Shown: one piece after another, positions 1-6,000 of the stretch
Layout: every line of letters begins with the position of its first letter
How positions within the stretch are numbered: position 1 is the first letter of the stretch
From: a virus
Taxonomy: Duplodnaviria > Heunggongvirae > Uroviricota > Caudoviricetes
Virus record (IMG/VR): IMGVR_UViG_2778261660_000014
Coordinates: 1-7,625 of that record
Direction: 5' to 3' (one strand)
Length of the DNA stretch: 7,625 nucleotides
Program-made: the position numbers

Positions 1-3000
1 TAACGAAGTTTGCGTAACAGCATTTTGCTCTACGAGTTTGCCAGCCTCCCCCAGTGGCTGGCTTTTTTATGTCCGTAGCGTCAAAGCAGCAATGTCGCTG
101 GGGCGTCGTGCAATTGGCGTTGAGCTGGAGACTGAACGTTTTGAGCAGACGGTCAGGGAAGTTCAGGATTTAGTCAGTCAGAACGGATGATATTGCAGGA
201 TTAGTTACGTACCGTTATTATCCTGCGCCCGGCCCTTTAGCTCAGTGGTGAGAGCGAGCGACTCATAATCGCCAGGTCGCTGGTTCAAATCCAGCAAGGG
301 CCACCATATCACATACCGCCATTAGCTCATCGGGACAGAGCGCCAGCCTTCGAAGCTGGCTGCGCGGGGTTCGAGTCCTCGATGGCGGTCCATTATCTGC
401 ATTATGCGTTGTTAGCTCAGCCGGACAGAGCAATTGCCTTCTGAGCAATCGGTCACTGGTTCGAATCCAGTACAACGCGCCATATTTATTTACCAGGCTC
501 GCTTTTGCGGGCCTTTTTTATATCTGCGCCGGGTCTGGTGCTGATTACTTCAGCCAAAAGGAACACCTGTATATGAAGTGTATATTATTTAAATGGGTAC
601 TGTGCCTGTTACTGGGTTTTTCTTCGGTATCCTATTCCCGGGAGTTTACGATAGACTTTTCGACCCAACAAAGTTATGTCTCTTCGTTAAATAGTATACG
701 GACAGAGATATCGACCCCTCTTGAACATATATCTCAGGGGACCACATCGGTGTCTGTTATTAACCACACCCCACCGGGCAGTTATTTTGCTGTGGATATA
801 CGAGGGCTTGATGTCTATCAGGCGCGTTTTGACCATCTTCGTCTGATTATTGAGCAAAATAATTTATATGTGGCCGGGTTCGTTAATACGGCAACAAATA
901 CTTTCTACCGTTTTTCAGATTTTACACATATATCAGTGCCCGGTGTGACAACGGTTTCCATGACAACGGACAGCAGTTATACCACTCTGCAACGTGTCGC
1001 AGCGCTGGAACGTTCCGGAATGCAAATCAGTCGTCACTCACTGGTTTCATCATATCTGGCGTTAATGGAGTTCAGTGGTAATACAATGACCAGAGATGCA
1101 TCCAGAGCAGTTCTGCGTTTTGTCACTGTCACAGCAGAAGCCTTACGCTTCAGGCAGATACAGAGAGAATTTCGTCAGGCACTGTCTGAAACTGCTCCTG
1201 TGTATACGATGACGCCGGGAGACGTGGACCTCACTCTGAACTGGGGGCGAATCAGCAATGTGCTTCCGGAGTATCGGGGAGAGGATGGTGTCAGAGTGGG
1301 GAGAATATCCTTTAATAATATATCAGCGATACTGGGGACTGTGGCCGTTATACTGAATTGCCATCATCAGGGGGCGCGTTCTGTTCGCGCCGTGAATGAA
1401 GAGAGTCAACCAGAATGTCAGATAACTGGCGACAGGCCCGTTATAAAAATAAACAATACATTATGGGAAAGTAATACAGCTGCAGCGTTTCTGAACAGAA
1501 AGTCACAGTTTTTATATACAACGGGTAAATAAAGGAGTTAAGCATGAAGAAGATGTTTATGGCGGTTTTATTTGCATTAGCTTCTGTTAATGCAATGGCG
1601 GCGGATTGTGCTAAAGGTAAAATTGAGTTTTCCAAGTATAATGAGGATGACACATTTACAGTGAAGGTTGACGGGAAAGAATACTGGACCAGTCGCTGGA
1701 ATCTGCAACCGTTACTGCAAAGTGCTCAGTTGACAGGAATGACTGTCACAATCAAATCCAGTACCTGTGAATCAGGCTCCGGATTTGCTGAAGTGCAGTT
1801 TAATAATGACTGAGGCATAACCTGATTCGTGGTATGTGGGTAACAAGTGTAATCTGTGTCACAATTCAGTCAGTTGACAGTTGCCTGTCAGACTGAGCAT
1901 TTGTTAAAAAAATTTCGCATGGTGAATCCCCCTGTGTGGAGGGGCGACTGGTGAAAAATCCTTGCTTGTGATTCATTATCGACACGGGTTCGGTGGTACC
2001 AAGCCGAACTCACCGGGAGGCACCCGGCACCATGCAGTATACAGAGATTAGGCATATACCAAGGCCTCTCATAGCAGGGGCCTTTTTACATGTAAAAAAA
2101 GCCCGAGTGGGTTCGGGCAATTGCATGAGATACTCGTTTTAATAATCGAAAGCATTTTAACCAGGATTCATAAGGCTGCGCAACTGCGCGGCCTTTTTCG
2201 TATTTCGGGCTGTAGTCTTCCTTCTGCCATTGTCCTGTAACTTCCGGACTTCAGCCCGCTCCTCATCTGACTCACACATTATCCCGACCGGGAGGATTCA
2301 TGGCATTTAAACACTATGACGTGGTCAGGGCGGCGTCGCCGTCAGACCTTGCGGAACGAATAACTCAAAAACTGAAGGAAGGGTGGCAGCCTTATGGTAG
2401 TGCGCTGATTTCGACAGCTGGTTATGGTGCGGAGTTCATCCAGCCAGTTGTGAGTGAGGGGAGCATCTCATCACCAGAGGAGCCAGGCAACCGTCCGACG
2501 ACCTCAGCGCCTTCTGTTGCGCCAGAATATTACTATGTGATCGCGCTTGCTGGTCAGTCCAATGGTATGTCATACGGTGAGGGACTGCCATTACCGGATA
2601 CATTCGACAGTCCTGATCCACGAATTAAACAGTTAGCGCGTCGCAGTACGGTGACACCGGGAGGTGCCGCCTGTAAGTATAACGACATCATTCCGGCGGA
2701 CCATTGTCTGCATGATGTGCAGGACATGAGCCGCCTTAACCATCCGAAAGCGGACCTGTCAAAGGGGCAGTACGGAACCGTGGGGCAAGGGCTGCATATC
2801 GCCAAAAAATTGCTGCCGTTTATACCGGCGAATGCGGGCATTCTGCTGGTTCCGTGCTGTCGTGGTGGTTCAGCGTTCACCACCGGAGCCGATGGCACAT
2901 ACAGTGACGCGAGTGGTGCCTCGGAGAATTCAACCCGCTGGGGTGTGGACAAGCCGCTGTATAAGGACCTTATCGGTCGAACAAAAGCAGCACTGAAGAA

Positions 3001-6000
3001 GAACCCGAAAAATGTGCTGTTTGCCGTGGTGTGGATGCAGGGGGAATTTGATTTTGGCGGTACGCCGGCAAATCACGCAGCACAGTTTGGTGCGCTGGTT
3101 GATAAATTCCGTGCAGACCTGGCGGATATGGCAGGTCAGTGCGTCGGTGGCTCTGCTGGCGGTGTTCCCTGGATATGTGGAGATACGACGTATTTCTGGA
3201 AGCAGAAGAACGAATCCACGTACCAGACGGTGTACGGCAGCTATAAAAACAAAACGGAAAAGAATATCCATTTCGTACCGTTCATGACCGATGAGAACGG
3301 GGTGAATGTGCCGACGAACAAACCGGAAGAAGACCCGGACATTCCGGGTATCGGATATTACGGTTCGAAATGGCGTGACAGCTCAGCCACCTGGACGTCA
3401 CAGGACAGGGCGAGCCATTTCAGCGCCTGGGCACGCCGTGGGATTATTTCCGACCGTCTGGCAACGGCGATTTTGCGCCATGCGGGAAGAGTGGCGCTAA
3501 ACGCGGGGGCATCATCGACAGTATCAGAGGTGCGCCCGTCATCGCCTTCCGGTGCAGAAGCCACAGGCGTCACAACACTGCTCTCTTACCTTGCCAGCGA
3601 GTCAGAGGGAAGCCTGAAAGTACAGGGATGGTCAGCCAGTGGCGGCAGGGCAGAAGTGGTCAGCGATGCGGAGGGAACCGGAGGTAAGGCAGTGAAGCTG
3701 ACCAAGGAGGCCGGTAAAAGCAGCTGGGTGCTGGAGTACGCCGCGGGCAACGGTGCGGCTCTGTTACAGAAAGGGGGGCAGATTCGCTGCCGCTTTAAGG
3801 TTTCGGGAGCGCTGGCTGCGAACCAGTATGTTATGGCGTTTTACTGGCCGGTATCTTCACTGCCACAGGGCGTTGCCCTGACCGGAGACGGGGGGAATAA
3901 CCTGCTGGCAGCGTTCTACATCCAGACAGATGCAAAAGACCTGAATGTGATGTACCACAATGCGAAAGTGGCGACAAACAACCTGAAACTGGGAACCTTT
4001 GGCGCATTTGATAACGAATGGCATACGCTGGCTTTCCGCTTTGCCGGGAATAACAGCCTTCAGGTGACGCCGGTTATTGATGGTCAGGATGGCACACCGT
4101 TCACGCTGACGCAGTCACCGGTCAGTGCATTTGCGGCGGATAAACTGCATGTGACAGACATTACCAGGAATGCGACTTACCCGGTACTGATAGACAGCAT
4201 TGTGGTGGAAGTGAACAGCACAGACACTGCGGCATGATAAAAAAACCGCCAGCGACAGGAATGGACGCTGGCGGTGGTGATACCTATGGAGAAAAAATAA
4301 AGGAACGATACTTTCGTACTCTGGTTTTTTAATGAAAACAGTTCTTATTGTCAACAATAACGGAAAGAAATTATGACATTTCTGAACCAGTTAATGCTGT
4401 ACTTCTGTACGGTGGTCTGTGTGCTGTATCTCCTTTCGGGTGGATACCGGGCCATGCGTGACGTCTGGCGCAGACAGATTGACAAAAGGGCCGCTGAGAA
4501 AATCAGCGCCAGTCAGTCAGCCGGAAGCAAACCCGAAGAGCCGCTCATTTAGCGGCAACTTTCTTAATCACATCTTTCGACGAGAAAATCCCATGTCAGA
4601 AATTACATCCCTGGTCACTGCTGAGGCAGTGAAGGAAGTCCTGCGCTCTGAAGAAGTCCTGAGCGCACTGAAACAAAAACTTCGCCATAACCTGGAAGCG
4701 CGTCTTGATGCAGAGGTTGATGCCATTCTGGATGAGCTGCTTGGTGTACAGGCAGAGCCACCGACTGAAGCGGGAGATACCACCGCAGAGAGCGGTGAAG
4801 TTCAGCCTGAATCACCGGTCGCCGATGCGACTGAACCTCAACCCGAATCGGTCATGATGCTGTAACGGGGAGTCAGGGCCATCAGTAAACAGCTGCTGGC
4901 CTTTTTCATGTTGTGAGCTTCCGGATAACGGGAGACGGGGTATGTACCAGATGGAAAAAATCACAACAGGTGTGTCATACACCACGTCAGCGGTGGGAAC
5001 GGGCTACTGGTTCCTGCAGTTGCTGGACAGGGTTTCCCCGTCTCAGTGGGCGGCAATAGGCGTGCTGGGGAGTCTGCTGTTTGGTCTGCTGACGTACCTG
5101 ACGAACCTGTATTTCAAGATTAAAGAAGACCGGCGTAAGGCGGCGCGGGGAGAGTAAGCTGATGAGCAGGAAATTCCGCTATGGTTTATCAGCGGTAGTT
5201 CTGGCGCTGATTGCCGCAGGTGCTTCTGCGCCTGAAATCCTCGACCAGTTTCTGGATGAAAAGGAAGGTAACCACACCACGGCATACCGTGATGGTGCGG
5301 GGATCTGGACCATCTGCCGTGGTGCCATTCTGGTGGATGGTAAGCCTGTTATTCCTGGCATGAAGCTGTCAAAGGAAAAATGCGACCGGGTTAATGCCAT
5401 CGAACGTGACAAGGCGCTGGCATGGGTGGAGAAAAACATCCGGGTGCCGCTGACCGAACCCCAGAAAGCGGGGATCGCGTCATTCTGTCCGTACAACATT
5501 GGCCCCGGTAAGTGCTTCCCGTCGACGTTTTATAAACGAATTAATGCAGGCGATCGAAAAGGTGCCTGTGAGGCGATTCGCTGGTGGATTAAGGACGGTG
5601 GCAGAGACTGCCGTATCCGTTCAAATAATTGCTACGGTCAGGTCTCACGGCGTGACCAGGAGAGCGCGCTGGCGTGCTGGGACATCGACAGATAGCAGAA
5701 TATTTTCCTGAAAAATGACGTTGGCCAACGCGGGTGGATAACACGAAATCCTGAAAACTGGTAAAACCTAAGTGAATAAAAGTAAAAACCCCGTTTGTTG
5801 GCAGCAAGCGGGGTTTTGTGTTTTCTGACCTTGAGTAAGGCAAGGGAGAAATTATGGGTAGGGAGGTACTTTCCCTGTGAGGAAGTATAAAAGATTCTTT
5901 CTGAGGTTGTCCATTATGAAAGGCATTGAAGTGGAGACGCCAGCCAGTCTGGATTTAACAAGAGCGGCAGCTTTTGCCATTCGTATTGTGGCCATTGCTG

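Follow-up and report, generated by a model that had tools for sequence, protein, structure and literature searches.

The window analyzed here is the whole stretch of 7,625 nucleotides (nt) that forms positions 1 to 7,625 of the IMG/VR virus record IMGVR_UViG_2778261660_000014, a virus of the class Caudoviricetes. The gene under study lies at 2300-4237, between the Shiga toxin genes stx2AB and the phage lysis genes. It is an intact nanS-p gene of a Shiga toxin 2a (Stx2a) phage, that is, the phage version of the Escherichia coli 9-O-acetyl-N-acetylneuraminate esterase NanS. In the reading preferred here, to which a probability of roughly 85% is assigned, the product NanS-p is an intact protein of three modules that joins an esterase to a lectin-like domain, is expressed late along with the toxin, and has a homologue in phage phi24B that sits on the capsid. 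Published work covers the protein with its three domains, the catalytic blocks and the location beside stx, experimental structures exist for two of the three domains, and the gene itself is already known. The association between its N-terminal domain and the head genes of the phages that carry it, and the probable mismatch of the two in the window's own phage, were not found in the searchable literature.

As listed in Table 1, the open reading frame (ORF) named in the original prediction was recovered exactly, on the plus strand with a product of 645 amino acids (aa). Over its full length the protein matches PHROG 143, and 639 of the 645 residues are identical to vb_24B_21 of phi24B, the protein also termed gp84. 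Together with the matches in Pfam and the Protein Data Bank (PDB), this establishes the identity as NanS-p. The DNA of the gene is 100% identical to the copy in E. coli O157:H7 TT12A, where it is annotated as a SASA family carbohydrate esterase, a label that can here safely be read as NanS-p. The gene shares 98.1% nt identity with the copy in the Stx2a phage of EDL933. A scan of the protein against NCBIfam matched no family. The three-part architecture that had been predicted was recovered in the Pfam hidden Markov model search, in which DUF1737, the NanS/SASA core and DUF6645 were all matched, and this arrangement is common to the best 120 of 1560 NanS-p homologues. ORFs on the minus strand inside nanS-p (e.g., 2554-2952 and 2930-3271) were taken as chance ORFs in GC-rich coding DNA.

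In the esterase core, residues 72-393 share 56.5% identity with E. coli NanS/YjhS (PDB 3PT5) over 317 aligned positions, and the Pfam SASA match is partial (residues 152-276, E 1.8e-10). GQSNG in NanS-p corresponds to GQSNA of NanS, which contains Ser19 (table in PMC10792757), and the serine of GQSN (residues 85-88) is Ser87, as originally read. His373 in RASHFS aligns with His301 of NanS in the pattern R-x-SHFS (PMC10792757). The key catalytic residues are invariant across 20 homologues of 73-97% identity, including R188, G189, S191, A192 and F193 of Block II. The Block V Asp of the classical triad (DxxH, three residues before the His) is absent, and its position is occupied by Arg370 (R-A-S-H). 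NanS itself lacks this Asp, and its catalytic His is hydrogen-bonded by a carbonyl of the main chain (3PT5; PMC10792757; PMC9487903); RASH and RSSH variants are described in PMC10462455. The missing Asp is a property of the NanS branch and no sign of inactivity. The original prediction had tied the esterase identity to a SASA/SGNH domain match and to conserved Ser, His and Asp. The domain match, Ser87 and His373 were all found. The Asp part is unsuited to this branch (PMC9487903; PMC10792757), and the Ser/His/Asp test has to be read as Ser/His, because the main-chain carbonyl takes the place of Asp.

The C-terminal extension of 252 aa divides into a linker of 29 aa and a domain of 223 aa. Residues 423-640 match the crystal structure 6YP6, deposited as "NanS-p", with 216 of 218 residues identical (E 1e-139). 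A full-length AlphaFold2 model, built from a 20-sequence alignment whose homologues are 73-97% identical, gave a mean predicted local distance difference test score (pLDDT) of 57.6 and a predicted template modeling score of 0.39, with pLDDT below 50 for residues 397-422. Interpretation was confined to the C-terminal domain, leaving out the N-domain and the esterase. This part shows a lectin-like fold and superposes on 6YP6 in Foldseek with a template modeling (TM) score of 0.93. The next neighbors are concanavalin A (ConA)-like lectin folds, namely the CBM40 module of Vibrio cholerae, sialidase modules of Akkermansia, legume lectins and the Hc domains of clostridial toxins. The aromatic residues Y510, Y515, Y540 and F611, named as a proposed sugar site in PMC10462455, which cites Franke 2020 for it, are all kept in the window's protein. 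The fold and the aromatic patch suggest that the domain is likely to bind glycan. The earlier suggestion that the extension may be carbohydrate-binding is thereby supported at the level of the fold.

The base composition of the region places nanS-p with the phage backbone. Its GC content is 55.2% (58.4% at third codon positions), compared with 44.3% (about 42%) for stx2AB. The lysis genes S, R and Rz, at 54.6%, 54.5% and 54.5%, are like nanS-p. It can be seen that nanS-p is indeed more GC-rich than stx2AB, as had been judged by eye; the separate origin concluded from this is not supported, as stx2AB is the compositional outlier. It is stx, and not nanS-p, that forms the compositionally foreign element. 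The gene order is stx2A, stx2B, nanS-p, DUF1378, DUF826, the holin gene S, R and Rz, as described for this region in PMC10462455. A consensus scan of the plus strand found no sigma70-like site in 1814-2299, which is weak evidence when taken alone, and no terminator-like site directly past the stop at 4237, which is weak evidence either way. The same scan found a strong terminator-like hairpin upstream of the gene (Table 1). If this hairpin functions, reading through it would need Q-modified polymerase. In strains with stx2a, mitomycin C raises the level of nanS-p transcripts by 1-2.4 logs, in step with that of stx2a (PMC10462455). Composition, promoter scan and co-induction speak more for a late gene under Q control than for a moron with expression of its own.

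A link to the toxin had also been proposed. It stands insofar as nanS-p adjoins stx2AB and is induced together with it, and fails insofar as the gene is not specific to toxin phages. Related DNA occurs in 341 phage records. Of 5426 complete E. coli genomes, 1305 contain such DNA, at a median of 4 and a maximum of 15 places per genome, and the 90% cluster of the window's protein in the protein database has 4,397 members. The gene is a very common one of lambdoid prophages, and that it is not restricted to toxin phages is likewise stated in PMC10462455. In E. coli 2014C-4423 and SJ3, nanS-p is split by insertions of the IS3 family (IS600 or similar), leaving separately annotated DUF1737 and DUF6645 proteins; insertion sequences within nanS-p are also described in PMC10462455.

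A virion role is known from phi24B. In an unreviewed 2026 preprint (bioRxiv 10.64898/2026.04.10.717836), gp84, which is 99% identical to the window's protein, is among the strongest bands of the virion, running at its full length of about 70 kDa on fresh particles and at about 35 kDa after storage. Cryo-electron microscopy resolves residues Ala2-Ser57, the DUF1737 domain, as a hexamer. On each face of the capsid, which has T=9 symmetry, such a hexamer plugs the central hexon and is anchored by a "tooth" formed by Tyr42. Cleavage is proposed at SSP-containing motifs in both linkers, and the preprint and, as cited there, Franke 2020 report that the C-terminal domain is cut from the esterase. The window's DUF1737 domain is identical to that of phi24B at 56 of 57 residues, and Tyr42 is present. 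The predicted masses of 68.6 kDa for the full length and 38.4 kDa for residues 58-414 agree with the reported bands. In the searchable literature, the preprint was the only source found to link DUF1737 to the capsid. Two Stx1a phages (L004:18022-19872 and L006) encode a NanS-p of 616 aa with a very short first linker (EGDVVVSGATEPDWYYV) in which the S/T-S/T-P motif is absent. The SSP site proposed for autoprocessing is thus missing from some members of the NanS-p family.

A comparison of DUF1737 with the head genes suggests that the anchor idea extends beyond phi24B. The set comprised nine annotated phage or prophage loci and 160 IMG/VR loci with DUF1737-esterase genes, each typed for its DUF1737 loop (residues about 32-52) and for its downstream head module. 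Of these, 62 loci had a typable head. The helix of residues 1-31 is nearly invariant, and the loop falls into three classes, A (AGYGAEFIQPVV, with a close variant A2), B (ITPYTLMQAI) and C (YTDDGAALIQ). The head modules are of four kinds: the phi24B type with a Phage_capsid_3 major capsid protein (MCP), the BP-4795 type with Peptidase_S78 fused to a PF05065 capsid domain, the Stx2_14040 type with ClpP fused to Phage_capsid_4, and a lambda-like type with gpA/gpB-like terminase and portal. Loop A stood with the phi24B head at 15 loci and with the BP-4795 head at 2, A2 with the phi24B head at 4, B with the BP-4795 head at 15, the lambda-like head at 16 and the Stx2_14040 head at 1, and C with the Stx2_14040 head at 9; every other combination had a count of 0. 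Apart from 3 discordant loci, all fall into three pairings, A or A2 with phi24B (19), C with Stx2_14040 (9) and B with BP-4795 or lambda-like (31). Cramer's V is 0.93, a value reached in 0 of 5000 label shuffles, with loci that are not independent of each other. A one-to-one match of loop and head (34 of 35 loci at first) was rejected on wider sampling, which brought loop B with two heads and the discordant loci.

The rest of the interval is shuffled among the head types. Esterase alleles with 95% or more identity to that of the window are found at 7 loci with phi24B, 3 with BP-4795 and 5 with Stx2_14040 heads, and window-like C-terminal domains at 5, 3 and 3 loci, respectively. Sharing across head types also extends to the alleles of DUF1378, DUF826, S, R and Rz, the genes that separate nanS-p from the head module. 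Compared with loci of types B and C, DNA identity of the window is 45-73% in codons of about 27-107 and 98-100% from codon 127 or so, and in type-C loci it is 85-97% just upstream of this diverged island. The island includes the loop with the capsid-contacting Tyr42, and the most diverged stretch of the protein is residues 32-52. Breakpoints lying exactly at the inter-domain linkers, as taken from megablast boundaries, were rejected by the sliding identity, with codons of about 27-107 diverged and recovery by about codon 127. It can be seen that the 5' segment with the anchor remains coupled to the head genes across 5-7 kb of freely exchanged DNA, which is what co-adaptation of anchor and capsid would produce. 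The comparison, made on sequence, provides independent support for DUF1737 as a capsid anchor. Three loci (L133, L139 and L145, with match starts at 7987, 10001 and 10001) carry type-B DUF1737 ORFs that end after 77 aa, and L042 carries a 71-aa version of type A. The short ORFs of the former three represent either nanS-p genes that have been truncated or anchor domains that stand alone.

The head genes of the window's own phage lie outside the window, and the head type was read from relatives and from the DUF3950 gene. The closest relative of the whole window is the Stx2a prophage of E. coli 07_3722, with 96% identity over 1-5780 and 94% over 6028-7584. There, the downstream order is PerC, DUF3950 and HNH, followed by terminase, MCP and portal of the BP-4795 type, with the large terminase subunit and the MCP at 98% and 95% to that type. 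The PerC-DUF3950 end (6964-7584) is common to the window and 07_3722. In BP-4795, 1717, L011 and 07_3722, the DUF3950 gene stands immediately 5' of an HNH-terminase-head module of the BP-4795 type. From these neighborhoods, the window's phage is probably a mismatch that joins a phi24B-type anchor to a BP-4795-type head. The exchange looks recent, because the nanS-p gene is 100% identical to the TT12A copy, which goes with a phi24B-type head. A phi24B-type head for the window's phage, at first assumed from this same identity, is unsafe after the arrangement in 07_3722. A further mosaic is L011 (9534-12421 of the locus, IMGVR_UViG_2778260993_000014), in which a whole type-A nanS-p cassette lies between BP-4795-like flanks beside a BP-4795-type head. 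The cassette has 99% identity to its counterpart in a phage whose head is of the phi24B type.

Several points weigh against the reading given above. Capsid decoration rests on one unreviewed preprint and on one phage, and sugar binding by the C-terminal domain of NanS-p was found demonstrated nowhere in the literature searched. The window's allele differs from that of phi24B by six substitutions, three of which (A123V, A257V and A376S) are in the esterase, and activity is known from other alleles. The loci compared are non-independent samples, mostly E. coli prophages. Their association is not one-to-one, since the type-B anchor goes with two unrelated head modules and three loci (L011, L090 and L105) are discordant, and the diverged island runs about 50 codons into the esterase. 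The closest relative, 07_3722, combines a type-A anchor with a BP-4795-type head, and display of NanS-p on the capsid of the window's phage is doubtful.

On this basis, the mechanism would run as follows. In the esterase, Ser87 would act as nucleophile and His373 as base, with the main-chain carbonyl of Arg370 in place of Asp, and Gln86 and the QGE motif, whose definition and role as (H)QGE in SASA enzymes are given in PMC9487903, would form a SASA-type oxyanion hole. The ConA-like jelly roll with its patch of Y510, Y515, Y540 and F611 would likely bind glycans. Being located between stx2AB and the lysis genes in the late transcript that depends on Q, nanS-p would be made with the toxin on prophage induction, and its position in this transcript and the published co-induction suggest that the protein leaves the cell at lysis. 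Judging from close homologues, extracellular NanS-p would then de-O-acetylate sialic acids, both free and bound to mucin, and so provide N-acetylneuraminic acid (Neu5Ac) for surviving sibling lysogens. Esterase activity and growth on 9-O-acetylated Neu5Ac (Neu5,9Ac2) of the 933W allele and other EDL933 and O104:H4 alleles are reviewed in PMC8065619. The role in the use of Neu5,9Ac2 that had been assigned to the gene agrees with this literature (PMC8065619; PMC10462455), which concerns such related alleles. In phi24B, the esterase and lectin modules are, according to the preprint, displayed on the capsid and later shed by slow proteolysis, for which the SSP motifs are the proposed sites. In the window's phage, NanS-p may be no more than a soluble esterase that lysis sets free. 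The benefit would go to sibling lysogens, to the particle in mucus, or to both. Display may occur beyond phi24B and may be lost in mismatched recombinants like the window's phage.

A wider proposal is put forward tentatively, at somewhat less than even odds. NanS-p would be a modular enzyme displayed on capsids across several lambdoid head lineages, with its short anchor segment (loop types A/A2, B and C) matched to the head by selection, and with free exchange of the esterase, lectin and lysis modules between prophages resident in the same cell. Recent recombinants, probably including the window's phage, would carry orphaned anchors and act as soluble-esterase morons. If so, the particles of Stx and other lambdoid phages would generally be enzymatically active on sialoglycans, and the matching of anchor and capsid would be a marker of prophages that still display the enzyme. 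The natural mismatches, probably that of the window's phage included, are ready-made test cases.

A somewhat unlikely alternative holds that NanS-p primarily serves the phage as a virion enzyme, which retains the particle in mucus or strips O-acetyl groups of mucin or host-surface glycans on the way to the receptor, with lysogen feeding as a by-product. This idea has been raised in PMC8065619 and in the preprint. It accords with the virion location and with about 120 copies per capsid, a figure that results from our own multiplication by 60 of the 2 decoration subunits per asymmetric unit given in the preprint. The resemblance of the C-terminal domain to the sialic-acid-binding CBM40 and to sialidase-associated modules, and the conservation of nanS-p across four or more head types of lambdoid prophages, point in the same direction. 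However, a benefit to the phage has been shown by no experiment, the esterase and C-terminal domain are shed from stored particles, and discordant combinations of anchor and head persist in nature. Stx2e, Stx2f and Stx2g phages are also without nanS-p (PMC10462455).

A less likely explanation concerns the comparison itself. The association of DUF1737 with the head could simply follow from lineage and from hot spots of recombination rather than reflect physical interaction, with the 5' segment too diverged to recombine and therefore staying with its lineage. The extension of the diverged island past the anchor, about 50 codons into the esterase, would be expected in this case, as would a type-B anchor common to two head families, three discordant loci and the phylogenetic non-independence of the loci. 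Nevertheless, the DNA flanking the island on either side is freely exchanged, lysis alleles are shared, and the head genes lie beyond the shuffled interval. The most diverged segment (residues 32-52) is moreover the capsid-contacting loop of the cryo-electron microscopy model. Both of the A-on-B mismatches that were checked, the window and L011, look recent, with nanS-p DNA 99-100% identical to donors with A-type heads.

The original prediction had regarded nanS-p as a fitness moron, that is, as separately acquired cargo of lysogenic conversion; in its pure form, with feeding the population on O-acetylated sialic acids as sole role and the N- and C-terminal modules having no role in the particle, this is likewise rather unlikely. 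Growth of enterohemorrhagic E. coli on Neu5,9Ac2 does depend on nanS-p alleles and the recombinant enzymes de-O-acetylate mucin glycans (PMC8065619), the gene lies within the classical zone of moron insertion downstream of pR' (PMC4104026), and in the window's probable phage, where anchor and head do not match in type, it may be no more than a soluble enzyme. However, a GC content equal to that of the lysis genes is unlike foreign cargo, no promoter-like site of its own but a terminator-like hairpin stands upstream of a gene that is induced with the late genes (PMC10462455), its phi24B homologue is among the most intense bands of the virion with DUF1737 resolved on the capsid (bioRxiv 10.64898/2026.04.10.717836), and the DUF1737 variants track the head type across 5-7 kb of shuffled DNA.

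The coordinates of nanS-p and of the other elements of the window are given in Table 1.

Table 1. Features of the 7,625-nt window, in order of position
Feature	Position	Strand	Description
DNA methylase remnant, 50 aa	38-190	+	5' of the tRNA genes; annotated as partial pseudogene in TT12A and 07_3722
Three tRNA genes	231-306, 316-392, 406-482	+	5' of stx2A; ARAGORN: Met-CAT, Arg-TCG, Arg-TCT
stx2A	573-1532		
stx2B	1544-1813		
STnc100 small RNA (sRNA) family (Rfam)	1888-2093	+	206.9 bits, full-length model; between stx2B and nanS-p
AsxR anti-sRNA	2096-2148	-	88.1 bits; 3' end 282 nt past stx2B stop
Terminator-like hairpin	2172-2195	+	About 105 nt 5' of nanS-p; 10-bp stem with 7 GC pairs, T-rich tail; consensus scan
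Shine-Dalgarno-like GGGAGGA	2290-2296	+	3 nt short of ATG at 2300; direct sequence reading
nanS-p coding sequence	2300-4237	+	ATG start, 645 aa plus stop; ORF list
DUF1737 N-terminal domain	2300-2470	+	Residues 1-57; Pfam PF08410 at residues 3-53, E 3.5e-18
SISSP motif	2462-2476	+	Residues 55-59; first autoprocessing site proposed in the preprint
Linker 1, Pro/Ser/Thr-rich	2471-2512	+	Residues 58-71; between N-domain and start of NanS alignment; 66.7% GC
SGNH/SASA esterase core, NanS homologue	2513-3478	+	Residues 72-393; 3PT5 in PDB sequence search, E 7e-118
Block I GQSNG	2552-2566	+	Residues 85-89; predicted nucleophile Ser87, codon 2558-2560
Block II RGGSAF	2861-2878	+	Residues 188-193; identical to NanS block (PMC10792757)
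Block III MQGEFD, SASA-type QGE motif	3035-3052	+	Residues 246-251; identical to NanS
Block V RASHFS	3407-3424	+	Residues 370-375; predicted catalytic His373, codon 3416-3418
Linker 2	3479-3565	+	Residues 394-422; RPSSP at residues 412-416 (nt 3533-3547), proposed second autoprocessing site
C-terminal lectin-like jelly-roll domain (DUF6645/CTR1 type)	3566-4234	+	Residues 423-645; 6YP6 match
Pfam DUF6645	3764-4120	+	Residues 489-607, E 1.4e-74
S	4942-5157		
R	5162-5695		
PerC-family (Pch-like) activator, 104 aa	6964-7278	+	Directly 3' of lysis cassette; Pfam PerC, E 3.8e-44
DUF3950 (YlcI/YnfO family) gene	7360-7584	-	PerC-DUF3950 end of the window

Several of these neighbors have features of their own. 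The first of the three tRNA genes is annotated by RefSeq as tRNA-Ile (lysidine type), and phi24B has Ile, Arg and Ser at this position. At the place of the methylase remnant, phages of the Stx2_14040 type carry a full DNA methylase gene of 352 aa. Near 2064-2093, a hairpin with a T-run closes the STnc100 match. The position of AsxR is as described in PMC4104026, according to which it destabilises FnrS and derepresses the heme oxygenase ChuS. The stretch of 6500-6950 ahead of the PerC gene is very AT-rich (31-39% GC). PerC/Pch proteins are activators of the locus of enterocyte effacement (LEE) island, and the window's phage may carry the toxin and a LEE regulator together. Additionally, a comparison of window positions 5696-6030 with L001:9397-10396 indicates that two elements seen between R and Rz in TT12A, O121, phi24B and most Stx2a phages, an antirepressor gene of about 570 bp and a small ORF, do not occur in the window. 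Because these are missing, most database matches come in two pieces that cover 82-83% of the window.

Among known systems, the chromosomal NanS (3PT5) corresponds to the esterase core of NanS-p. Blocks I-III are identical except for the last residue of Block I (GQSNG in NanS-p, GQSNA in NanS), and Block V follows the pattern R-x-S-H-F-S in both (RASHFS and RSSHFS, respectively), likewise without Asp. NanS is a single domain of about 326 aa, whereas NanS-p is phage-encoded and late-expressed, with 71 additional N-terminal residues (DUF1737 and linker) and 252 additional C-terminal residues (linker and lectin-like domain). Phage 933W NanS-p (z1466 / L0105) and the other EDL933 and O104:H4 alleles share the locus and the architecture, and differ from the window's gene only as alleles. 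The phi24B protein vb_24B_21/gp84 has an equal length, the same domains, the SISSP and RPSSP motifs, Tyr42 and the patch of Y510, Y515, Y540 and F611, and its gene also lies between stx and the DUF1378-DUF826-S-R genes. The six substitutions between the two proteins are E19K, A123V, A257V, A376S, N624G and V635A. The heads set the two phages apart, with a podoviral head of the phi24B type in phi24B and a BP-4795-type head probable in the window's phage.

The C-terminal domain shares its jelly-roll fold class with the CBM40 and ConA-like modules of sialidases (V. cholerae sialidase 2W68, with a TM score of 0.65, and Akkermansia Am1547 8HLS), which are likewise joined to an enzyme acting on sialoglycans. 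Sequence identity to these modules is merely 14-17%, and resemblance of fold alone does not amount to membership in CBM40. The DUF1737 domain of phi24B resembles Hoc of phage T4 and pb10 of phage T5 in being a small capsid-binding module at the center of the hexon that carries outward-facing domains, and interaction with mucus is a proposed role for these (preprint discussion). In contrast, DUF1737 is unrelated in sequence, binds as a hexamer and not as a monomer, and carries an enzyme that is proteolytically shed (preprint).

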